From a virus, in the IMG/VR virus record IMGVR_UViG_3300047586_000066, positions 38,599 through 102,598 of that record: a stretch of DNA of 64,000 nucleotides; one strand, given 5' to 3'. The stretch's first letter is position 1. Every line of letters starts with the position of its first letter. Shown here one piece after another: positions 29,850-42,275 of this stretch. The notes under the pieces are model-generated. The model saw only the letters and a list, made by a program, of their open reading frames with translations, was not told the origin of the DNA and made no database searches. Position numbers and translations under genes: made by a program.

Positions 29850-32800
29850 TTAAGGCGATGGCGGCGGAGGGAGGGATGCCGACGCCGACTTTCGAGCGGG
29901 TGCATTGACTTTACCTGAGAGAATTTGGTCAATCACTCCGCGTTCCTTCTTTGGACTCGCTTTGACGACACGTCCCTTATTCGGGCCAGAGGTTATCACG
30001 CGAGCTCCTTTAGGAACTTCATGAGTTGCTCTGATCGCCATGAGGGTCTCCATAATGTACTCAGGGATAGAATACCTTTGATCCCCTCGAGTTAACATAC
30101 TAATTAAATTGGTTACCGAGAAGGGTATCGGCGTAATGCCTCCGGCAATATGCAGGAGTCCTCTGATTGACGCGGCTGGCTCCGGCATTCCCTTCTGGGC
30201 GATGGCTCTTCCTGCCCAGTCCTCATTCTTCAAAGCCTCCATCCCGGTTCGTGAGAGCGGGCTCATTTTGTTGGCTATCGACCGAAGTAGACCTTGAACC
30301 AATCCATAATCTTGGACGTTATCCCATGCCTGAATCAAATCGGAAGGTCCGCCAGCAAAGAAAGTCTTCTTATAGAAAACATCCTTCCCATCCTTATCCT
30401 TGCCAGCGTACACGGCTGTCGGATGCCTTGAGAACTTTCCGGTGAGCATCAGGCTTGTGAATTCCGACAGGAGGATTCCAAACACAAAGGCTCGGAACCA
30501 GAACCACCTTGCAGCTCGCCCGGCCGGCGTGCTCTCGATAAGTCTTCCCATAGGATTATCAGGAGGCGGCGGCAGCCCGGCGCCAGGTGGTTGGTTCGGC
30601 GGACCTCCGCCAGGAGGAGTCCCACCCGGAGGAGGAGCCCCACCGGCCGGAGGAGGAGCCCCACCGGCCGGAGGAGGAGCCATTTCAAAAGCATATTTTA
30701 GCTGTATGACATTGGAGAATGTCCAGTCGGGCGCCAGGAAGAACAGCCGAGCAGCTCCAACCAGCATCTTATTAAGGCCCATGACCTCCCAATTCAATCC
30801 ACCATAGGCCGAGTTGACCTCTTTGGCGATCGATCTCCTGGCTTCAGCGAGTCTGTTGGGATTCTGGGCTTCCACTGGATGTTTTGCTATCCACGCCGCA
30901 TCCTTCAGCATGAAGTCGTGAACCTTAAAGATGCGCTGCATATGATCGAACATGAAGCGGGTCAGCCCGCGTGCGGCTTCGTCGATCTGTTTGATCCCGG
31001 GGACAGTCCTTAGCTTGTCCGCCAGAGGAGATTCTTCGGCCCTGATCCCGCGGTAGGCTTCGATCGCCTTTCCCGCCATGCTGGTTACTAGGCCATACCG
31101 AGCGCCGAGCACTTCCCCAGCTTTGAACGTCGGGGTATCGCTGAATCCTTTTTCAAAGATTGTCTTGATCTCTTTGGGACCCATGTTTGCGATTGCGGTC
31201 GCCGTCAGAGCTTTCATGTGGAAGAAGGATAGCCCGAGTTCCACGGATTTCAACATTGCCTGGTAAACCCGGATAGCGGTATAGCCCTTGAGATGACGGA
31301 GATAATCCGGATCCGTGATCGCTCTTAGGGCTTCGACGATCGGCTTTGGTCCGAAAGCTCTTCGGTATGCGGTCCTGGGTTCTCCGGTATCTTTGTCATC
31401 ATAGGCGAAGTGATAATCCCAGAGCGCGTTCTCTCCACGGGTATATGGAACCCAGTCTTTAAGATCCGGATCTCCGCGGGTGCCATATTTAAGGACACCA
31501 TTATTTTTAAGCAATCCGATCAGTTTAACGGTGGCGGCCACTTTCGCCCAGCGATCGCCGTAGATCGTCATAGCGTCCAGGGCGTTGAATGTCGCGGGCC
31601 GGGCCCCAGTCTCACCGCTGAATGCAAGAGCCGTCAGCAAGTCTGGGAATGTTCGTTTGCTGGCGAACTCGAAATTTCTGGGCATTGGATGACCTTTGAT
31701 GTTCGTTGGAGCCGCATTGCCACTGGATGGTTCCTGATCGAAGGTCAAGATATGGACGAGATAGTCCTCCGGCAGAATGTTGCTTTGCAGGAAGCCAAGC
31801 AATCTCCCTTCATACAGCCGGCGCCGGAAGTAGGCTGTCTGCAAATCGGCGACCTGCTGCATCTCTGGAGACGGATTCATCGCTCGCTCGATTACCGGCC
31901 GCAGCTCTCGCACGGCTTTTATCGCTCTCAACCTGGCATCCGTGACCTCCTGGGGCGTTGCCTTCGGATTCTTCTGCGCGAAGTACCGAGCAACCTTATT
32001 GAATATCGGATGAGTCCCATCCATAAATTCTTGCAGCTCGCCCGGCCGGTTTCCAAATTCACGAAGCAGGCTTACCGCTTGCTGATCCAGGACAGAAGGG
32101 ATCATCTGCCGGCACATTTCTCTGAGCTGGTTGGTTTCAACAATGGACGGGTCTCGATCGCCAACAAAGAATGATCGGAGGGCTTCTTCGAGTTGGCGCC
32201 TCTCCTGGCCCATGGCTGTCTGAAGATCTGCCAGGACCTCTTCAGGAGAACGACCTCCGATGCCGGCCGTATAGCCGAGGGTCCTGGCTACTGCGCCAAG
32301 GATTTGTTGCGTCGACGGACCACCTGAATACATGTAATGAGGCCCCTTATTGTCGGGCTCTGGCTCATTCGCCGCATCTTTGGGTTCTGTTTCCTCGTCC
32401 GGCTGTGCGACTTTGGATTCAGGCAGCGGCGTCAGGCGATTATTTATGCGTTCGTCGAGCTGTCTCTGAGCGTCGAGAACCTGATCAGAAAGCTGGTTGT
32501 AAAGTTCGAAGTCTCCTTGATTGCCGGCCTCGTCTCGCTGCTTCGTCAAATCCTTGACTCTGGTATCGAGGGCGTCGACGTCCATGTCCGGAGGTTTCAG
32601 TCCGCCCGGAGGTCCGGGAAGTCCTCCGGCTGGAGGCTTGGCCACTTTTCTTTTAACTGTTGGGACTGCCTTCTTTAACTGGAGGCCACTGAGGAACTTT
32701 CTCGGAGCCGAGGAGGCTATCCCCGCTTCCGCATCCACTTCCTCAACCGATTTACCAGATCTCTTTGCCTGCTCATAAAGAACAACATAGGCTTCGGCTT

Positions 32801-35800
32801 TGGAATATTCCTCACCAAGGCTCTCAATCCGATCGCGCCACTTCGCAATTTCGTCCTGGTAATTCTTAACCCGACTCTGAGCATCCGAAACGTTATTGCG
32901 TAGGCTCTCCAAGAGCTGTTCATAATATGCCGAGCCATTTCCTTCGCGGATATCCTTTTCATAGTCGGTAATCCTGTCCTGCCAGCTCTTGATTCTGTTT
33001 TCGTGGTTTACAACGGCATGTTCGGATTGCTGGATATCCTTTTCCAGTTCAGCGATGCCAGCCTGAGCAAGCGTCGAGGCGTGTTTGGCGCGATAGTAAT
33101 CTAGGGTCGATTGCGGGATCGCCGCGGAGTCGGCCAGCTCTTGGAAGTTCCGTCCATCCGAATCGAAGTCCGTAACTTCATCGGCGTCACCCATCCAGAG
33201 CTCTTTATTCCAGCGATCTTTTCTGGCCAGTATGTCATACAGCTTTGCGTCGGAAGTTCCCTTGACCAGGTACCGGTGAATCCTGACAACATCATTCGTG
33301 TTGCCTTGGCGCAATCCTCGGCCGCCGCGCTGTTCAAGTCCGGCTGGATTCCATGGAACATCGTAATTATGGATATCAGTCGTGTAGGTTTGGAGGTTCA
33401 TGCCCTCACCCATTGATTGGGTTGTTCCAATCAGAAACCGGTTCTTTCCTTCGGCGTTCTCCTGCTGAACCTTAAACTTTGCCTTGGCTCCAGAATTGCT
33501 CTGCTGGTTTATGATCTCGATCTGAGACTCTGGGATCCCGGCTTCTATCAGCTTCGCTTTAATGTGCTTGTGGATATTGAGGAGCTCTACGAATTTCCCT
33601 TTTTTCTGCTTTGAGGCTTCTGGATCTTCGTCGTCTTCTCCTCCTTGGCTGATCTTCTGATTTTCAAGATCGTCCCCTTCCTCTTCATGGTAGCCGCCAC
33701 GGTAAAGATCGCAGAAGATTAACTGGCAGTTGTCGCCAGTGTCGAGATTGATAACGTTGTTTATCAGGCTGTCGAGCTTAGAACCAGGTCCGCCGAGAGA
33801 ATCGCCATACTTTACTGGGTCAAAGATTGCAGGGTCAGCCGCAACCTTCCTGGCTTCAGTCAAAACTGTGAGATGATTGATTCCCAGCTCTGCCGCATGC
33901 CGGAAGTCTTCTTTGACGAATTCATCGAGCCATGCAATATAGCCGGCTGCTTCGGTGACTGCTTCCGTTGGCTCCAGTTTGTGATCCTGATACTCAGCGG
34001 CAGGACGCTGGACAGGCAACATTTCAATCGGACGGAAATCGACATAGCGCCGGAAGATCGAGCGGAGCTCCTTCAGGTTTTTATATCCGGTCCAGACTGT
34101 CTTAGAAGTAGGAACGCCTGTGGCTCCTTTGACTTCAACGGTGTCTATCACTCCGAACTGTTCGATGAAGTCACCGGCGTTCATGATCCCTCGGCTTGTC
34201 CATTCTTCCGGAGCTACATACTGCATCATCGCGTAGATTTCAGAAGGATGGTTAGGCGTCGGGGTTGCCGTCAGACCAAAAACATTGGCGCCTTTCTTCC
34301 CGCCTCGGCGCTCATGAATGTATCTGGTTTTGTAAACCATGTCGGCCGCCCGCTGGGCCGGCTTACCCTCATGAACGTATTCAGCCATGTCTCCGTATGA
34401 ACGCGGAGAATTTTTGTAATTGTGAGCCTCGTCAATAATTATCCCGTCGACGCCGAGGTCCTCGAACCAAACCGTCTTTGTCTTCTTGAAGGCTTGGAGC
34501 TGCGCCAACCGTTCCTCGAGGCGCATGACAGCATTCTGGATATCTTGCTCTCTCTTTTTTCTCTGGGCATCACTCTTACCACCGGCCGCCATAGTCGCAT
34601 GGAGTCTGTCTTCGAACAGTCGGATATCTTCTCGGATGTATTCTTCCGATTTCTGGAGGGGAATCTCCTTCATACTCTCAAAGCTGATAAGAATATAGTC
34701 AGCATCACTGGCCGCAACTCTCTGGAGCATCCGGTATCGGTTGTCGGCATCCATCCCAGAAAGGTCTGCAATCTTGGCATCAGGCAATACCTGAGAGATT
34801 TCATAGGCCCAGTTTTTAACCACCTTGGCCGGAGCTACAATCATCGGCTTTGTAACCTTGCCGGTAGCTTTAAGGTGAGCTGCCAAGAGGATTCCAACGA
34901 GCGTCTTGCCGCCGCCGACACCGTAGGAAACAATCCCGGCGCCCATATGAGCCTGCCGGCCGACCCCTTCCCATTGATGAGACTGGATCTCTAAAGGCTT
35001 CCCTTTGAAAGTGGAAGCCAACCCAGGGATGTTGAGCTGCTTCGGAGAATAGAATCTCTCCCTGAACGATCGGAACATGCGGTTATAAATCGGCGTGAGG
35101 TCCTCAAAATAGGAGCGATTCCCTCTGGCCCATGTCTGGAAGTAATCCGTCAGCTTCTTGTAGGTTCGCTCTCCGACTTCCGAGAAGATTGTCTTCATCT
35201 TCTCCCGGCCTTTGGCATCACGCTGCCCGGTTGGGATCTGCTTTGTAGGTCTCCTGTGATTCAGGTAATTCTCTACGACCTCTTCATCGAGGACGACCTG
35301 GGTAGGAAGAGGAACACCATTTGCATCCTTTATCTCTCCGGCGACTTCCATCTGGAGTCTGAAATGTCCAGAGACGTGCCAGGCAAACTTCCCACGTTCC
35401 GGATCAAATTCTTTTTCAACGGTCCATGTTCCCGGGAATTGATTCTGAACCCATGTCTTTACAATCCGGTCCTGCATGTAAGAAGAGAACGGATCTGATC
35501 GCCGAATAACTTCGTCCGTATCGGCTTGTTCAGGTAGGGCATTTTGAAGTTTCTCGAGCTGCTTCGAGAGGACCTCAAGGATCTTCGCTTTATCCGTGCT
35601 GTCCTCATGTGTCGACTCAATCTCATTGTAGAGAGTGTTCGTCTCATCAATTTTGGGATAGATATCTCCGAAGAGATATTCATCATCGATTTGGAGGACT
35701 GGCAGAGCATTGGCGTCGAGGGCCTCAATGCTGAAATCCGGATGTCCGACAAGATCATTCTGGTCTCCGGGCCCAGTATAGAGAGACTTAAACCGATCCC

Positions 35801-38800
35801 AATCCATAACAGAGGTTTCTTCGTAAACAAACTTAGCTGTGTCTACAGCGTCGGTCGGATCGAAACTCCGCGGGACTGGAGCGGGACGATACATCGTATT
35901 CTTTGTGAAGATGTCAGACGGATCCCCTTTTCTGTCGGTCAGTCCGGCCAAACGCCAGACTCTTGGATCAGCAAATGGGAAGGGGTTCGATGCAGGCCCG
36001 CCATTCAGATACTTCCAAAGCGCAGGATCGGTCCCGGGTGCCCCTGAAGGATTAGATTTTGCAGTTGCATAATCCTTCTTATACTTCTCGAGCGTCGGAC
36101 GGATCAATTCACGAAGCTGGTCGGCACGGTCGATATCATTCTCTCTCAGTGCGGAATACAGCTCATCCGTCAACTCCATCAATCTCAGGCCCCGCTGGAC
36201 TCGATTAAAGGTCTTGTTCTTATCTTCGCCACCCTTTCGCTTCCTGGGCATCTCAGAGGCTTCGTAGATATTTCCATCCTTGGCGGCGTAGCCGAACTTC
36301 TCCTTTTCGGCATCCCAGACGATCGTCCCGGTCTTCATTCCTTCCGGACGTTCGCCGAGGATAGGACGCTCCGACTCTTCTTTGTCTTCCCGAGTTGAGG
36401 CTGTTATCTTTACGGGCACGTAGCGGATCTCATCCTTCAGAGCTCCGTGCATAACCCTGTCATATCGAGCTGCGTCTCGTTTCCCGTCAGCTCCTTTGAA
36501 ATGCTCTACGCCGACCTGTTCCTCATACAACCCCAGTCCTGATTTTAGAGTCCCCCATGCCTTTTCAGGATGCTTGACATACCAGGACGACAGTTTCCCT
36601 TTCGTTGGGTTGCCTTCGTCTTTGGGATTCAGGGCATGGATGAATTCCTCCTGATACATTGTATCGGTCCAGTTCGCCATTTCCTCTGGAGTCCGTTTGC
36701 GGAAGAAGATGACGTCAGTGCTTCCTTCGTAATGGGTGTTTTTCGAGAATTCCCCATTCGGAGTTCGATACGCCCCGAGGAATTCGCCGCGACGGTTCAT
36801 CTCTTTCCTGGTCTCGACCTTATCGACGCCGGTGCCATCCATGGTCCCGATGCTCGTAAAGTAAGCAACCATGCCATTCGGCCGCGCCATGTCCAGAGAC
36901 TTCATAAAGAAGAAGTCATGTAGAGCTTTAATATCTTCGTATTCCTTTGCTTCGTCTGAATACTTCAGGGCTCCACGGTGAGCGTTGAAAGGAACGTTCG
37001 AGATGAACAAATCGATATCGCGGCGAGGAGCGTATTCCTCAAAAGGCAAGTTTGAGACTTTGGCATCGGGGTAGAGTAACCGGGCTACCTTAACGGCGAT
37101 CTCATCAATTTCTGTCCCAAAGATCTGAACCGATGGATGCGCGAAACCTCCGAAGTTTCCTATGCCGAAGGCCGGATCCATCATCTTTATATCTTCAACG
37201 GGGAATCCCATTGCGCGGAGTTTGTCCCAGGTCCACTCCACCATGCGATAGGATGTATAGTGCTCGTAGAGTAAACCGCGCTCTTTCTCGGTATCTCCGA
37301 GACCTCCGGATCCGGTGTATTTGCGAAGGAGATCTTTTTCTTCGTCTGTGAGGGGATCACCTGGTTGTTTGGTTTGGACAAGATCGATGACCCGGGCATT
37401 GATATCCCGGCGCTCTTGCTTGGACAGGACTATTGGATCTCGTCCTCGGAGGCTGTAGCGGCTTCCTTTGCTGAGCTCCCCAATATCTGGCTTTTTAACT
37501 GGTCTTGGAGCTGGTCGCTCGGCAGGCTGCTCAGTAGGAACTGCTGTGTCAGGTCCTCCACTAGGTTCTGCCTCCCGTACTTCTCCACTAACTCCGGCGG
37601 GAGTTGGTCCACCAGCTTCTCCGCTGACTCCTCCGCTTGGTATATTCTTTGCAGTTCGGTCGCGCTGTTCACTGGGCTTCCTCTCTTTCCGTGGAGGAAC
37701 AACCTCAATATCTTCTGGAGGAGGTTGCGGTAATCCTTCACGTTCGGCAATGGTGCCGGCGGCGATGCTTTCCGCTGGGCCCGTTACTATTCTAGCATTT
37801 TGGTCATCAAACTGATCCTGAAATTCCTCTGTTTGGGCTTCCTGGTTCCCCGGACTCACGATCGCGGTCGCCGCTTCAGTCCAGCCGCCGTTCTGTTTTG
37901 GAACCTCAGCCCGGACTCCTACAGTGGTCATTTCAGACTTGGGCTCCAGGATTCCCATTAGGGAGAAGTCGGTATTGTTTTGGGCTGCCGTTCGAATATC
38001 CTCGGCGCTAATCGCTTTGGGATCGTACAGATATCGGCCTTTCCCCTCGATATCAATGGCTCCGATGGTGTCCGGATCAACTCCAGACCGATCGATGATC
38101 GATTGGCTGAAATTATCGATGTCTACAGTCGGGTCATTCGGGATGAAAACTACTCTACGCCGTCCTTTGTTAAGAGCCTTGAGCTGGGTGGAGAAGGTTG
38201 CCTGCTCTTCTGGAACCGTGACCTCTGGAGGCGGAGGGATCCCATGAGTTGGAACCGGTGCCCGGCCGCCAGATCTCTCGAGGTTTTTCCCGATCGTGTT
38301 TATTTCATCGTTGCTCAGGCCATCAAACGGTTTCCCATATAGTCTTCGAGCAATGTGATCCAGATCTTGATGCTGTCGTTGCGCCATTCCCCTGATACGC
38401 AAGCGGCTGAATCCCGAAGTCTTTCCCGGAGGTTCAGGAAGCGACTCGCGTTTAATCGCCGTTCTGGCACCTGGTATTTTAGGGATATGGGCTGCGTCCG
38501 CGAACAGGTGATTCATCCATTTCTGGGCTTCATCAAGAACGCGCTGGGAAGGTCCGAGACCTGCCTCTGAACTCATGGCAAGCTGAATCTTCGGTTCGTC
38601 AGCCGTGCCGGCGATCTTTGCGCGGATGGAGAAGGCTGTTTGCGGTGGATCCCCCAGCTTCTCAGACAGGTGATGAACGATTTCGTTGGCGAGCTGGCCG
38701 ACTCCTTTCCACGCTTCAGGGGAGGCATCTGTTCGCAGCGACGTCGGGATATCTGCCTGGGTAATCTTGCGGGCAAACTTCATTCGCTCTGCCTGATCCG

Positions 38801-41800
38801 GGATCAGAGGCTCAAGTTTGTTCGATGTTTCTTGAACGAACTGTTCAGTCTCGGCATTCTCGAACGCATACCGGCGCTGATACAGCCCCTCGAGGATGCT
38901 ACTTTCTTCCCGGGTGAATGGGGATTTCTCATGAGGCATGAGAGTCAAGGAGGCTTCTCCATACTTCGAAGCTAATTGATCTTCGTAAGCATCGACCGCT
39001 TTTTGGGCATCATCGTAGCTCTGCGGTTCGGGACCCAGTTTACTTGACAGGCCGGTGTCCGCCTGAGCTGGCGTCAGATCTGGAGGAGGAGCCGGAAGCT
39101 CACTGGTAGGCTGAGCCGGTGCCGCGGCCGCTCCTATCTCCGGGATTCCTTCATTCCAGTTGGTCGCGCCGTGGCGAATGAAATAGACTCCCGGCCGCAA
39201 TGGAGCATCGTTCTCCGGATGGGTGCCAACGCGCTCCATCTTCAGTCCGTCCGGAGTGAAGCCTAACCAGTAAACGGATCCGGGCTCGCCATCCTTCTTC
39301 TGCATCTCGCCTTTGTCGATGTCGAGAGTCTCGCCGTTGGCTCCTGCTTTGATCCACGCCTCGAGGAGCTTTGCGTTTCTGAATGAGCCTACAACCGCAA
39401 ATTTCTTTTCCGGATTATCGTGAGCTGTGCCCAATACGATTTGCATATAGCCCAGAAACCTGTTTTTGAAATCGTTGAAGCTCTCTCCGGGCTTGGTTGA
39501 ACTGGGTCCCTGGCCAGGTACGGGCTCATCGGGACGATTGAGCATGTAGTCATGGAGTTTGTCGATAACGAGAGAAGTCTGCTGTCCCTCAAATCCACCA
39601 GACCTCCAAGGCTGAAGATCTTCGCTCATGTCAAGGATCGGAGCATTAGTGGCATCCGACAAGATCGTCGCTGTCTGTGCCGTCCGCTGGAGATCGCTGG
39701 AGAAGATTCCATCCAGCCCGCCATTGCGGTGGAAGTAATCTCCGATATCTGTAGCCTGGCCGATCCCGTTCTGATTCAGAGGCAGCGGATCAGAGCTTCC
39801 GCGGAGAAGTTCCTCTGACTGAGCAGGCGATACCCCTTCCGGTTCTCCTTCAGGAGGAGCTTTATCGAGAACTCCGCCCGACTCTCCACCCGGAACGGCC
39901 GCAGGAGTCTCTTCTGTCGGAGGAGCTTTTAATTCTCCGCTCTTGGGCTCGACCTGGGTCTCAATCTGGGTCTGGGCCTCAGTTCCATAAGCATTTTGTT
40001 CGACAGTGGCTTGTTCGATCGGCGTGAGCGGACGTCCGAGCCGTTGTTCTTCCTGAGCCTTCAGGGCGTCGACGTCGACAGAACCGAGTCCGGCTCTGCC
40101 CTGGGCTGCCGTGATTCGGTCCATATTGAACTTCTGCCGGATCGCGTTGACCTCATCAGAGCTGAGCGGAGCGCCCTTCTTGGACTCAGCGGCATCAAGC
40201 CGGTCCTGCAACTCCGGTATTCCGCTCTTCGCCGAACTTATTTTCCCCGCGGCAGCCGGTCTTGGTTTCCCAGCATTGATCTGAGCCTTCGTCACCCGGT
40301 CCAGGTTGAATTGACCGCGAATCTTATCGATCTCTTCCGGAGAGAGCGGAGCACCCTTTTTGGACTCGGCAGACGCCAGGCGTTCCTTGAATGTCGCATC
40401 TGTATCCGGCAAATCTCCTCCAGGAGGCGCCGGAGTCCCAGGCTCAGGGATAGACGCAGGCTCGCCTCCGGATCCAGTCGGACCAGGCGGAAGAGCTTTC
40501 TTGTCAAGGTCAGCCGACGTTCCTGCTTGCGCTGGCGGAGTAGGACCCTTGCCTGCTTCGTTCACCTTCTTGGCATTCTCAAACCGAGAGGTCTGAGCTG
40601 TCTTCTTGCCGGCCACGTAATCTTTTATGATCCCCATCCATTCCGAGGTTGTCTTGATCCCTCCGGCAAGGATGGCCGAGCCGAAGGTCGCATTGGCCAG
40701 AGCCTTCGTGACTGCATTCCCGAGACCTTCGTAATCGCCCTTCTTTGCGGCATCCCAGGCTTCCTGAGAGTCTTGAATCGCACCATAGAGCATTGGAACG
40801 CTCAGACCAAACGAAGCCGCAATTTTGAGAAACGGCGCCATGGGAATCTTTCTCAAGGCAACCATGAGAACGATATTCTTGGGCGTGGTCATCTGCTCGG
40901 CGAGTTCTCCCATGGCTTTCACGCCGCCGACAATGAAAGGTGGAGGCGGCGGCGCGGTGTAAACCACACCATTCAAACCAACGACCTGTCGAGGTCCTCG
41001 CGCAACGTCGGCATCGACTATTTTCGATACAGCGCCGGAGATCTTCAGGAAAGGATGATCGTACCAGGCCGTGTCATTCGCGACATGGGGATCCTTGTTC
41101 TCGTATCCTGGAATCTTCCCTGATGCGTAATCATCATGCAAAGTCTGGGCGTAGGACGTCGCCGACTGCGGAGAATCGAAGATGCCGAGATGCCGGCCCG
41201 TTCGCTTATAAGCGTCGACGGCTTCCTCGTTCGTCATGATATGGCCGTCATCGCTCACTGTTGGAATCAGAATCTCTTCTCCATTGATTCCGACGCTGAT
41301 CGAACGAACGGTACTCCGGGTGCCATCGGGATTGGTGACGACCGGCCGCTTTGTCAGATCGATATTCCCAGGTTCAAGAAGGCCAGGGACTTCCTTGTCG
41401 ACCAGACTCGTAGGCAAGGTTTGAGGAGTGCTCTTATCTGACTGGAGTTGAGCCGCAATGAGGCGCTGAGGTAACTGCTGTCCGGCCTGCAAGGCATCCC
41501 AAACCGACGCATATCTCTTGTCTCCACTTTTGGGATCGTACTTCTGGGCGTTCTCTCCGATGTAGAGCAACAGATCTTTGTCCTTCAGTCCCATCGCCAC
41601 GCCGGCATCGTAGACAGGCTTGATGTATTCCAGGGATTTCGGGATCACGTAGTCCGGATCATAGGCCAACTGATCAGGGACATCTTTGCCATACCCGGAG
41701 CCATTCCATTGGTAGAGACCTCGGGAATATTGCTTGTTGGAATCCATGACTTTGGCGTGGGAGTTTCCGCCCGACTCCGACATGATAATCGCCCGATTGA

Positions 41801-42275
41801 TCGCGGGATCGACGCCATAGATGTTGGCGTATCGATCGGCCTTCGTCCACAGGCTTTCAGTCTCATTTGGATCCGGAATGGCACCCGGAAGATTTTTTGG
41901 CAACTTCGCCGGCGTGAACTTTGTCGTCTGGTCCGGTGGAGGAGGAGGCAGACCCCCGCCATATGCCTGCTGGGCCAGTTCTCCTATTCTTCCAACGGCC
42001 GCTTTCGTAGCTCCCCAGGTCCTTTCCATGAGACCTGGTTCTCGGAACTCATTGACCCACTGATCATAAGGACGATGGATGATGTAGTCCTGGGATTCCT
42101 TGTCAGCGCCGGCAAAGCCTTTATCGATCTGGGAGAGCACAATTCGACGAGCTTCTGGCACTAAAGCATGGAATTTGGGGTCAAGAACTGTGTCCTTAAG
42201 AGTGGGTAGAGGTTGAGCCCCCATCCCCCCCGGAGTCGGTTCCTGTGGCGTCTGCCCTTGGGGATCTTCTGCCAT
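29850..42275 (-). CDS. giant polyvalent virion protein: SLT + permuted histidine phosphatase + DarB-like N6-adenine methyltransferase + SNF2 helicase
   Basis: AIIMSESGG..SRGLYQ; SSDLQRTAQTA/GES/RHGATNWN; DPAFGIGNF/ISNVPF; GVGGGKT/IDEAHNYKN/LTATP/QRGGRGLRQGN. Confidence 0.88.
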   Translation of the reverse strand: MAEDPQGQTPQEPTPGGMGAQPLPTLKDTVLDPKFHALVPEARRIVLSQIDKGFAGADKESQDYIIHRPYDQWVNEFREPGLMERTWGATKAAVGRIGELAQQAYGGGLPPPPPDQTTKFTPAKLPKNLPGAIPDPNETESLWTKADRYANIYGVDPAINRAIIMSESGGNSHAKVMDSNKQYSRGLYQWNGSGYGKDVPDQLAYDPDYVIPKSLEYIKPVYDAGVAMGLKDKDLLLYIGENAQKYDPKSGDKRYASVWDALQAGQQLPQRLIAAQLQSDKSTPQTLPTSLVDKEVPGLLEPGNIDLTKRPVVTNPDGTRSTVRSISVGINGEEILIPTVSDDGHIMTNEEAVDAYKRTGRHLGIFDSPQSATSYAQTLHDDYASGKIPGYENKDPHVANDTAWYDHPFLKISGAVSKIVDADVARGPRQVVGLNGVVYTAPPPPPFIVGGVKAMGELAEQMTTPKNIVLMVALRKIPMAPFLKIAASFGLSVPMLYGAIQDSQEAWDAAKKGDYEGLGNAVTKALANATFGSAILAGGIKTTSEWMGIIKDYVAGKKTAQTSRFENAKKVNEAGKGPTPPAQAGTSADLDKKALPPGPTGSGGEPASIPEPGTPAPPGGDLPDTDATFKERLASAESKKGAPLSPEEIDKIRGQFNLDRVTKAQINAGKPRPAAAGKISSAKSGIPELQDRLDAAESKKGAPLSSDEVNAIRQKFNMDRITAAQGRAGLGSVDVDALKAQEEQRLGRPLTPIEQATVEQNAYGTEAQTQIETQVEPKSGELKAPPTEETPAAVPGGESGGVLDKAPPEGEPEGVSPAQSEELLRGSSDPLPLNQNGIGQATDIGDYFHRNGGLDGIFSSDLQRTAQTATILSDATNAPILDMSEDLQPWRSGGFEGQQTSLVIDKLHDYMLNRPDEPVPGQGPSSTKPGESFNDFKNRFLGYMQIVLGTAHDNPEKKFAVVGSFRNAKLLEAWIKAGANGETLDIDKGEMQKKDGEPGSVYWLGFTPDGLKMERVGTHPENDAPLRPGVYFIRHGATNWNEGIPEIGAAAAPAQPTSELPAPPPDLTPAQADTGLSSKLGPEPQSYDDAQKAVDAYEDQLASKYGEASLTLMPHEKSPFTREESSILEGLYQRRYAFENAETEQFVQETSNKLEPLIPDQAERMKFARKITQADIPTSLRTDASPEAWKGVGQLANEIVHHLSEKLGDPPQTAFSIRAKIAGTADEPKIQLAMSSEAGLGPSQRVLDEAQKWMNHLFADAAHIPKIPGARTAIKRESLPEPPGKTSGFSRLRIRGMAQRQHQDLDHIARRLYGKPFDGLSNDEINTIGKNLERSGGRAPVPTHGIPPPPEVTVPEEQATFSTQLKALNKGRRRVVFIPNDPTVDIDNFSQSIIDRSGVDPDTIGAIDIEGKGRYLYDPKAISAEDIRTAAQNNTDFSLMGILEPKSEMTTVGVRAEVPKQNGGWTEAATAIVSPGNQEAQTEEFQDQFDDQNARIVTGPAESIAAGTIAEREGLPQPPPEDIEVVPPRKERKPSEQRDRTAKNIPSGGVSGEAGGPTPAGVSGEVREAEPSGGPDTAVPTEQPAERPAPRPVKKPDIGELSKGSRYSLRGRDPIVLSKQERRDINARVIDLVQTKQPGDPLTDEEKDLLRKYTGSGGLGDTEKERGLLYEHYTSYRMVEWTWDKLRAMGFPVEDIKMMDPAFGIGNFGGFAHPSVQIFGTEIDEIAVKVARLLYPDAKVSNLPFEEYAPRRDIDLFISNVPFNAHRGALKYSDEAKEYEDIKALHDFFFMKSLDMARPNGMVAYFTSIGTMDGTGVDKVETRKEMNRRGEFLGAYRTPNGEFSKNTHYEGSTDVIFFRKRTPEEMANWTDTMYQEEFIHALNPKDEGNPTKGKLSSWYVKHPEKAWGTLKSGLGLYEEQVGVEHFKGADGKRDAARYDRVMHGALKDEIRYVPVKITASTREDKEESERPILGERPEGMKTGTIVWDAEKEKFGYAAKDGNIYEASEMPRKRKGGEDKNKTFNRVQRGLRLMELTDELYSALRENDIDRADQLRELIRPTLEKYKKDYATAKSNPSGAPGTDPALWKYLNGGPASNPFPFADPRVWRLAGLTDRKGDPSDIFTKNTMYRPAPVPRSFDPTDAVDTAKFVYEETSVMDWDRFKSLYTGPGDQNDLVGHPDFSIEALDANALPVLQIDDEYLFGDIYPKIDETNTLYNEIESTHEDSTDKAKILEVLSKQLEKLQNALPEQADTDEVIRRSDPFSSYMQDRIVKTWVQNQFPGTWTVEKEFDPERGKFAWHVSGHFRLQMEVAGEIKDANGVPLPTQVVLDEEVVENYLNHRRPTKQIPTGQRDAKGREKMKTIFSEVGERTYKKLTDYFQTWARGNRSYFEDLTPIYNRMFRSFRERFYSPKQLNIPGLASTFKGKPLEIQSHQWEGVGRQAHMGAGIVSYGVGGGKTLVGILLAAHLKATGKVTKPMIVAPAKVVKNWAYEISQVLPDAKIADLSGMDADNRYRMLQRVAASDADYILISFESMKEIPLQKSEEYIREDIRLFEDRLHATMAAGGKSDAQRKKREQDIQNAVMRLEERLAQLQAFKKTKTVWFEDLGVDGIIIDEAHNYKNSPRSYGDMAEYVHEGKPAQRAADMVYKTRYIHERRGGKKGANVFGLTATPTPNHPSEIYAMMQYVAPEEWTSRGIMNAGDFIEQFGVIDTVEVKGATGVPTSKTVWTGYKNLKELRSIFRRYVDFRPIEMLPVQRPAAEYQDHKLEPTEAVTEAAGYIAWLDEFVKEDFRHAAELGINHLTVLTEARKVAADPAIFDPVKYGDSLGGPGSKLDSLINNVINLDTGDNCQLIFCDLYRGGYHEEEGDDLENQKISQGGEDDEDPEASKQKKGKFVELLNIHKHIKAKLIEAGIPESQIEIINQQSNSGAKAKFKVQQENAEGKNRFLIGTTQSMGEGMNLQTYTTDIHNYDVPWNPAGLEQRGGRGLRQGNTNDVVRIHRYLVKGTSDAKLYDILARKDRWNKELWMGDADEVTDFDSDGRNFQELADSAAIPQSTLDYYRAKHASTLAQAGIAELEKDIQQSEHAVVNHENRIKSWQDRITDYEKDIREGNGSAYYEQLLESLRNNVSDAQSRVKNYQDEIAKWRDRIESLGEEYSKAEAYVVLYEQAKRSGKSVEEVDAEAGIASSAPRKFLSGLQLKKAVPTVKRKVAKPPAGGLPGPPGGLKPPDMDVDALDTRVKDLTKQRDEAGNQGDFELYNQLSDQVLDAQRQLDERINNRLTPLPESKVAQPDEETEPKDAANEPEPDNKGPHYMYSGGPSTQQILGAVARTLGYTAGIGGRSPEEVLADLQTAMGQERRQLEEALRSFFVGDRDPSIVETNQLREMCRQMIPSVLDQQAVSLLREFGNRPGELQEFMDGTHPIFNKVARYFAQKNPKATPQEVTDARLRAIKAVRELRPVIERAMNPSPEMQQVADLQTAYFRRRLYEGRLLGFLQSNILPEDYLVHILTFDQEPSSGNAAPTNIKGHPMPRNFEFASKRTFPDLLTALAFSGETGARPATFNALDAMTIYGDRWAKVAATVKLIGLLKNNGVLKYGTRGDPDLKDWVPYTRGENALWDYHFAYDDKDTGEPRTAYRRAFGPKPIVEALRAITDPDYLRHLKGYTAIRVYQAMLKSVELGLSFFHMKALTATAIANMGPKEIKTIFEKGFSDTPTFKAGEVLGARYGLVTSMAGKAIEAYRGIRAEESPLADKLRTVPGIKQIDEAARGLTRFMFDHMQRIFKVHDFMLKDAAWIAKHPVEAQNPNRLAEARRSIAKEVNSAYGGLNWEVMGLNKMLVGAARLFFLAPDWTFSNVIQLKYAFEMAPPPAGGAPPPAGGAPPPGGTPPGGGPPNQPPGAGLPPPPDNPMGRLIESTPAGRAARWFWFRAFVFGILLSEFTSLMLTGKFSRHPTAVYAGKDKDGKDVFYKKTFFAGGPSDLIQAWDNVQDYGLVQGLLRSIANKMSPLSRTGMEALKNEDWAGRAIAQKGMPEPAASIRGLLHIAGGITPIPFSVTNLISMLTRGDQRYSIPEYIMETLMAIRATHEVPKGARVITSGPNKGRVVKASPKKERGVIDQILSGKVNAPARKSASASLPPPPSP
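30600..30680. repeat. tandem 21-nt repeats encoding a GAPPPAG linker
   Basis: GGAGGAGCCCCACCGGCC repeated. Confidence 0.75.

Follow-up and report, generated by a model that had tools for sequence, protein, structure and literature searches.

Does this phage genome encode a histidine phosphatase whose catalytic strand lies at the end of the domain rather than at its front? The histidine phosphatase (phosphoglycerate mutase-like, PGM-like) fold belongs to a textbook enzyme family, and the question is raised by a protein of 4141 aa (P0001) that is encoded at 29850..42275 (minus strand) of the window, meaning the whole 64,000-nucleotide stretch of DNA analysed. The source, a virus record in IMG/VR, has 102,598 bases and is rated 96% complete, and the gene is a single open frame that runs for 12.4 kb without interruption. 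The original prediction had seen the motifs of the family in a rotated order within this protein, with the RHG coming last at 39176-39168, and had proposed a natural circular permutation. All of the motifs it listed are present in the order it gave, within the minus-strand ORF at 29850-42275, and the RHG is indeed the last of them. The domain occupies 39147..39818 (minus strand, aa 820-1043 of P0001) and is very probably a true branch-1 (PGM-like) permutant, forming a module of a giant phage protein and belonging to a large family of phage proteins.

The domain can be followed motif by motif along the minus strand. It opens with LLRGSSD (39789..39809, aa 823-829), the new N-terminus of the fold, which includes Arg825. 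This is the RxxG motif that comes after RHGxTxWN in canonical enzymes (residue 19 of the phosphatase PhoE corresponds to position 8 of the family profile), and 104 of 119 permuted homologues have Arg at this position. Next come DLQRTAQTA (39669..39695, aa 861-869), with the phosphate-pocket Arg864 (equivalent to PhoE Arg59), and DLQPWRSGG (39594..39620), where alignment to PhoE (LREIHLG vs LepwhlG) places Pro888 at the site of the general-acid Glu83. The GES motif with Glu931 lies in PGESFNDF (39468..39491, aa 929-936) and is preceded by an 8-residue insert peculiar to the permuted clade. AVVGSFRN (39375..39398, aa 960-967) represents canonical strand beta-4 and the second-His site, with Ser964 (codon TCA) and then the conserved Arg966. 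A beta-hairpin at 39228..39275, predicted by AlphaFold2 (AF2) as strands 186-192 and 195-201, corresponds to canonical strands beta-5 and beta-6, the former C-terminus. From there a 12-residue linker, GTHPENDAPLRP (39192..39227), connects the old C-terminus to the old N-terminus; it is modelled without regular structure at a pLDDT of about 94, and its counterpart varies in length across the permuted family. The domain ends with the relocated strand beta-1 and catalytic loop, GVYFIRHGATNWNEG (39147..39191, aa 1029-1043), containing Arg1034, the nucleophile His1035, Gly1036, Thr1038 and Asn1041, and including a predicted strand at 214-219 (pLDDT about 98).

When the isolated domain (window 39120-39830, minus strand, 237 aa) was scanned with Pfam, His_Phos_1 matched at 73 bits (E 3.3e-20, cut-off 21.7). 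The match covers profile positions 17-190 of 194 (onset 14-17) and leaves the N-terminal RHG strand of the profile unmatched; the RHG of the domain sits 13 residues past the end of the match, and upstream of the domain in P0001 there is neither a hydrophobic strand nor an RHG. A profile built from 54 permuted members matches PhoE (1EBB/1H2E) as two pieces in swapped order, positions 212-227 corresponding to PhoE residues 3-18 and positions 8-160 to residues 19-162, with the junction exactly at 18|19. Every circular shift of the domain was also scored against an HMM made from 24 canonical relatives. The maximum single-domain score, 188.3 bits, was reached with a start at residues 205-213, just before PGVYFIRHG, which is exactly the expected start; the native order scored 165.8 bits, and cuts in mid-domain brought the score down to 85 bits. 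The improvement in family match on re-ordering, put forward as a check with the original prediction, is thus about 22 bits.

An AF2 model of the domain (54-sequence alignment) reached a mean pLDDT of 94.3 and a pTM of 0.90, with strands at 41-45, 65-69, 143-148, 186-192, 195-201 and 214-219, the block with the last strand scoring 98. In the published PGM-like sheet the strand order is 324156, with the RHG following strand 1 (PMC6957218). The six predicted strands match this topology when read as 2-3-4-5-6-1, and the model has the three-layer alpha/beta/alpha fold with a six-stranded mixed sheet; the sheet position of strand 214-219 is taken from the DSSP strand call, the pLDDT and the strand count. 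The model of a stand-alone relative, P0013, agrees with this (pLDDT 96.9, last strand at 209-214 of 222), and in both models the RHG segment, whose place in the fold the original prediction had referred to AlphaFold, is confidently predicted as the sixth strand. As to membership of branch 1 (PF00300), the score, the RHG nucleophile, the second pocket Arg and the fold agree with the branch, while the second pocket His, the general-acid Glu and the canonical chain order are absent; the domain is a superfamily homologue with different connectivity. The proposal of a natural circular permutation is backed by the swapped PhoE match, the shift scan, the AF2 models and the relatives described below, and we regard a genuine permutation of the histidine phosphatase fold as very probable. 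The chain is opened in the loop that joins RHGxTxWN to the RG..D.PL motif; it begins at Arg825 and passes through canonical strands 2-3-4-5-6, and the 12-residue linker returns it to strand 1, which bears Arg1034-His1035 and is predicted to complete the six-stranded sheet.

Rather than a one-off, the permuted order belongs to a big phage family; neither this nor the additional lack of the canonical general-acid Glu was part of the original prediction. A phmmer search of 1.84 billion cluster representatives (50%-identity clusters) gave 1137 hits at E up to 0.001, 514 of them at E up to 1e-10. Of the 150 top-ranking relatives among these 1137, about 120 align continuously over query residues 5-227, the C-terminal RHG strand included, and about 25 others are canonical, with the RHG upstream. 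As defined here, the permuted family is recognized by one unbroken alignment in the order RG..D.PL, GES, T-H-x-R and C-terminal G.Y.IRHG.T.WN, and 119 homologues align in this way end to end. They are stand-alone proteins of 205-260 aa, which stop right after RHGxTxWN, or parts of giants; by size, 52 of 112 permuted sequences have up to 300 aa, 30 have 301-1000 aa and 30 are larger. Within the RHG segment the His is kept in 119/119 homologues, the Thr in 117, the Arg in 107 and the Asn in 100, and because of this conservation the position of the RHG after the end of the fold is, judged on the sequences, beyond chance. The order is found in clusters from several sources (ENA, JGI, Logan and NCBI), and in 12-13 of 19 loci from IMG/VR; a locus search with the single protein as query found no related loci. 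NCBI names family members 'histidine phosphatase family protein'.

For a phylogeny, the permuted sequences were re-ordered and aligned with canonical relatives, and the tree was restricted to the core common to both, with the RHG strand and the linker excluded. On the resulting tree the permuted or canonical label needs one change, on a branch with an SH-aLRT of 92, and P0001 groups with P0003 within the permuted side. Since the core tree is unrooted, this is at most consistent with a single origin of the permuted clade. Three features set members of that clade apart from their canonical relatives: the RG motif is followed by Ser where the latter have Trp, GES has the 8-residue insert in front of it, and a Glu (Glu896 in P0001) is almost invariant; P0001 retains all family positions conserved in at least 90%. 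A large permuted clade beside sisters of canonical order amounts to a natural experiment, in which the connectivity was changed and the active site kept.

Three relatives deserve separate mention. NCBI assigns P0155 and P0163 to metagenome-assembled genomes labelled Thaumarchaeota archaeon (a 63.6-kb contig) and Patescibacteria group. In both cases a phage contig has probably ended up in the bin of a cellular genome, and the labels have little bearing on the host. In P0112 (1989 aa), the permuted member at aa 630-1090 has about 200 residues inserted between the beta-hairpin and the RHG strand, the core lying at 642-834 and a hairpin remnant plus RHG at 1033-1089. A segment RTHAQLG.EG.GGLM.R stands before the core and again before the RHG piece, and the arrangement may have come from duplication of part of the protein or from insertion of a domain into the linker.

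The active site has been altered in two places. We take the catalytic set of PhoE to comprise Arg59 (dPGM Arg62), His151 (dPGM His184) and the general acid Glu83 (dPGM Glu89), and the alignment is consistent with this. Kept in P0001 are Arg1034, His1035, Arg825, Arg864, Thr1038, Asn1041, Glu931 and Arg966. The nucleophile His is invariant in all 136 sequences, and Arg864 likewise in 119/119 permuted homologues and 24/24 canonical relatives. At the second-His position the original prediction had read VVGSF; the loss of the His holds, but the residue in that column is the S of G-S-F (Ser964), not the F, and Gly963 stands in place of the usual Thr. Among the 119 permuted homologues the column has His in 100, Asn in 12 and Ser in 7 (consensus V-T-H-Y-R), and the canonical sisters have His in 24/24. 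The nearest kin, P0003 (48% identity) and L001 (47%), read T-H-Y-R, which makes the loss a recent one, confined to the P0001 lineage. The core tree implies at least 7 separate replacements of the second His by Asn or Ser among the permuted sequences, and none among the canonical sisters. At the Glu site, Pro is found in all 24 canonical sisters and in 75 of 112 permuted members, and the missing general-acid Glu is, by this distribution, a subfamily trait. A co-variation between Asp at the Glu site and Asn at the second-His site was also considered; the raw signatures were suggestive, but there were too few independent pairs (p about 1), and the idea was rejected.

Is the RHG strand nevertheless part of another domain? 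It could be the vestige of a second, truncated tandem domain lying outside the fold, in which case the main domain would be N-terminally truncated and inactive. Duplication followed by truncation is a textbook route to such arrangements, and the RHG piece alone scores merely 13 bits against PhoE. The segment is, however, conserved in 119 clusters with its His invariant, stand-alone proteins terminate directly behind it, two independent AF2 models give it a strand (pLDDT about 98), and the sheet, without it, would be one strand short of its six. Nor did the canonical relatives show a remnant of a second domain upstream of their RHG: an HMM of the C-terminal hairpin and linker, searched against the 24 canonical relatives, matched at the expected downstream position only and never upstream, and weak upstream matches in one remnant search were not reproduced. 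The giant itself holds a single His_Phos_1 match by Pfam. This origin is accordingly very improbable, and it is yet more improbable, to the point of being negligible, that a normal phosphatase gene was scrambled by an assembly or frameshift artefact. The contig is viral and metagenome-derived, but no positive evidence for such an artefact was found, and against it the same order recurs in more than 100 independent clusters (ENA, JGI, Logan, NCBI) and in 12-13 IMG/VR contigs, in addition to the uninterrupted frame of 12.4 kb.

A far more serious rival accepts the permutation and holds that the copy in P0001 is dead: left without its second pocket His and general acid, it would be a passenger in decay or a module that binds phosphate or a phospho-ligand. 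Ser964 and Gly963 at the second-His site agree with this, as does Pro888 at the Glu site, and the retention of T-H-Y-R in P0003 and L001 marks the loss as recent and peculiar to this lineage. Yet the remaining pocket residues are all retained, together with every family position conserved in at least 90%, and the repeated replacement of the second His (at least 7 times) beside an invariant nucleophile looks like a change that is tolerated rather than decay. Moreover, Pro at the Glu site is family-wide and includes all 24 canonical sisters, so that the family either works without this Glu or does not work at all. A dead copy is therefore a real prospect, although its probability falls somewhat short of one half. 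With Pro in place of the general-acid Glu and Ser964 in place of the second pocket His, turnover in P0001 has probably been weakened or the chemistry altered; a weakened enzyme that still works and a module that merely binds are about equally likely.

The closest characterised protein is PhoE (YhfR), a broad-specificity phosphatase of Geobacillus stearothermophilus (PDB 1EBB / 1H2E), with the phosphoserine phosphatase iPSP1 of Hydrogenobacter thermophilus (4IJ5/4IJ6) and the CobC alpha-ribazole phosphatases as close seconds. In contrast to PhoE, a free-standing cellular enzyme, the domain of P0001 is a module of a giant phage protein; residues 3-18 of PhoE are its last 16 residues, and Glu83 and His151 of PhoE are replaced by Pro888 and Ser964. 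Nearer at hand are phage sisters of canonical order (P0002, P0061, P0098 and P0150), which carry the motif RHGxT..N......IRGW.DVPL and are 31-44% identical to the query. P0002 (36% by BLAST) is the sole other giant that a word-based search returned. These sisters have RPW (with Pro at the Glu site), GESFNxFKxR, V-T-H-x-R and AW..G in common with the permuted group, and they too occur in giant polyvalent proteins. They differ in their N-terminal RHG strand, in having Trp rather than Ser after the RG motif, in lacking the 8-residue insert before GES and in not conserving Glu896, and they lie on the opposite side of one branch of the core tree. The protein-directed enzymes SixA, Sts-1 and PGAM5 belong to the same superfamily as the domain and are proof that phosphoproteins can be substrates of the fold (for Sts-1, PMC6957218). 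The match of the domain to the sixA equivalog TIGR00249 is weak and below threshold, at 20.3 bits (cut-off 74.5).

Standard profile annotation misses the catalytic His of the permuted proteins, which are therefore at risk of being read as truncated or dead. No NCBIfam model matched at its cut-off; the matches obtained start at profile positions 13-29 and skip the RHG strand, and that to the two-domain RNase H/acid phosphatase model starts at position 197. Among PHROGs, phrog_12933 (unknown function) alone was matched, from profile position 19, and the N-terminal, middle and C-terminal parts of P0001 had no match. There was no DNA or protein match among the isolated phages of INPHARED, and the viral structures of BFVD yielded generic canonical histidine phosphatases alone (TM at most 0.55), with no close relative. 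A full-text literature search found no paper on a permuted histidine phosphatase, and a natural circular permutant of the PGM-like fold appears to be undescribed in the literature.

The carrier is itself of a recognizable type. Pfam matches above the cut-offs in P0001 are His_Phos_1 (aa 821-969), SNF2-rel_dom, Helicase_C and ResIII; SLT and SLT_3 give weak matches below the cut-off, on which the assignment of an SLT-like lysozyme at aa ~148-208 is based. An N6-MTase-like NVPF motif lies at aa 1758-1764 and the SNF2 helicase at aa ~2444-2991. The phosphatase domain is flanked on both sides by low-complexity linkers rich in Pro, Ala and Glu, and P0001 has no transmembrane segment (no 19-residue window with a Kyte-Doolittle mean >1.6). 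With His_Phos_1, SNF2 and Helicase_C, and a weak SLT, in one ORF, P0001 fits the description of polyvalent phage proteins by Iyer, Burroughs, Anand, de Souza and Aravind (2017; PMC5512222). It resembles such proteins and the P1 DarB-type MTase-helicase in that a lysozyme-like domain is joined to an MTase-like region and an SNF2 helicase, and also in being encoded among structural genes; around it lie, among others, an internal-virion-protein-like gene, genes for helicases and one for an SbcC-like nuclease. Phosphatase, phosphoglycerate mutase and permutation are all absent from the text of the polyvalent-protein paper (PMC5512222), and the phosphatase module is an extra relative to the repertoire described there. 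As an added module in polyvalent, probably injected, phage proteins, it points to a host phospho-target that phages attack in the first moments of infection.

In IMG/VR, stand-alone members of the family adjoin virion genes: that of L002 lies between a portal gene and a virion structural gene, and that of L018 downstream of the major head gene. From these neighborhoods, virion delivery of the family is likely. P0001 would either travel in the virion or be produced early in infection, and its modules would act inside the infected cell. There, a phosphomonoester from a host or phage phospho-compound would be held in the Arg825/Arg864/Arg1034 pocket and its phosphate passed to His1035, hydrolysis proceeding through a phospho-His1035 intermediate; the loss of the general acid may mean that the leaving group of the substrate is a good one or that the proton comes from another donor. 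The altered substrate suggested in the original prediction, a nucleotide signal or a phosphoprotein of host defence, is speculative. A more specific suggestion, to which we give a low probability, is that the virion brings in the permuted family as a phosphatase for counter-defence or takeover, directed at a class of substrates that canonical enzymes do not handle, variants of the Ser964 type being tuned or substrate-trapping. The fold would then be adapted to the new class by having its nucleophile loop at a free end of the chain and by the loss of the general-acid Glu; for this class a phosphoprotein (phospho-His, or Ser/Thr of host kinase-based defence) and a phosphorylated nucleotide signal are candidates.

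The giants are mosaics. The C-terminal ~790 residues of P0001 (aa 3345-4133) recur in P0025, P0056, P0071 and P0100 at 33-37% identity (E 1e-115 to 1e-125), and the MTase-helicase body recurs in P0046 (44%); all five proteins carry the permuted phosphatase domain, at differing positions. The C-terminal part (window 29877-32243, minus strand) has no Pfam or PHROG match and may be a constant carrier or virion-anchoring part of these proteins. Several smaller features were seen in the same frame, again on the minus strand. Behind the SLT-like region, a block GNIDLTKRPVV...STV.S...G...ILIPTV (window 41124-41532, aa 248-384), without a Pfam match, is kept in P0046 (33% identity, E 2e-15). In the linker upstream of the phosphatase, a motif of about 35 residues, RL.(S/A)AESKKGAPLS..E...IR..FN.DR.T.AQ, occurs twice at a spacing of 60 residues (window 40161-40382, aa 632-705). 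Inside the conserved C-terminal module lies a Pro/Gly/Ala-rich repeat, PPPAGGAPPPAGGAPPPGG... (window 30639-30677, aa 3867-3879 and flanks).
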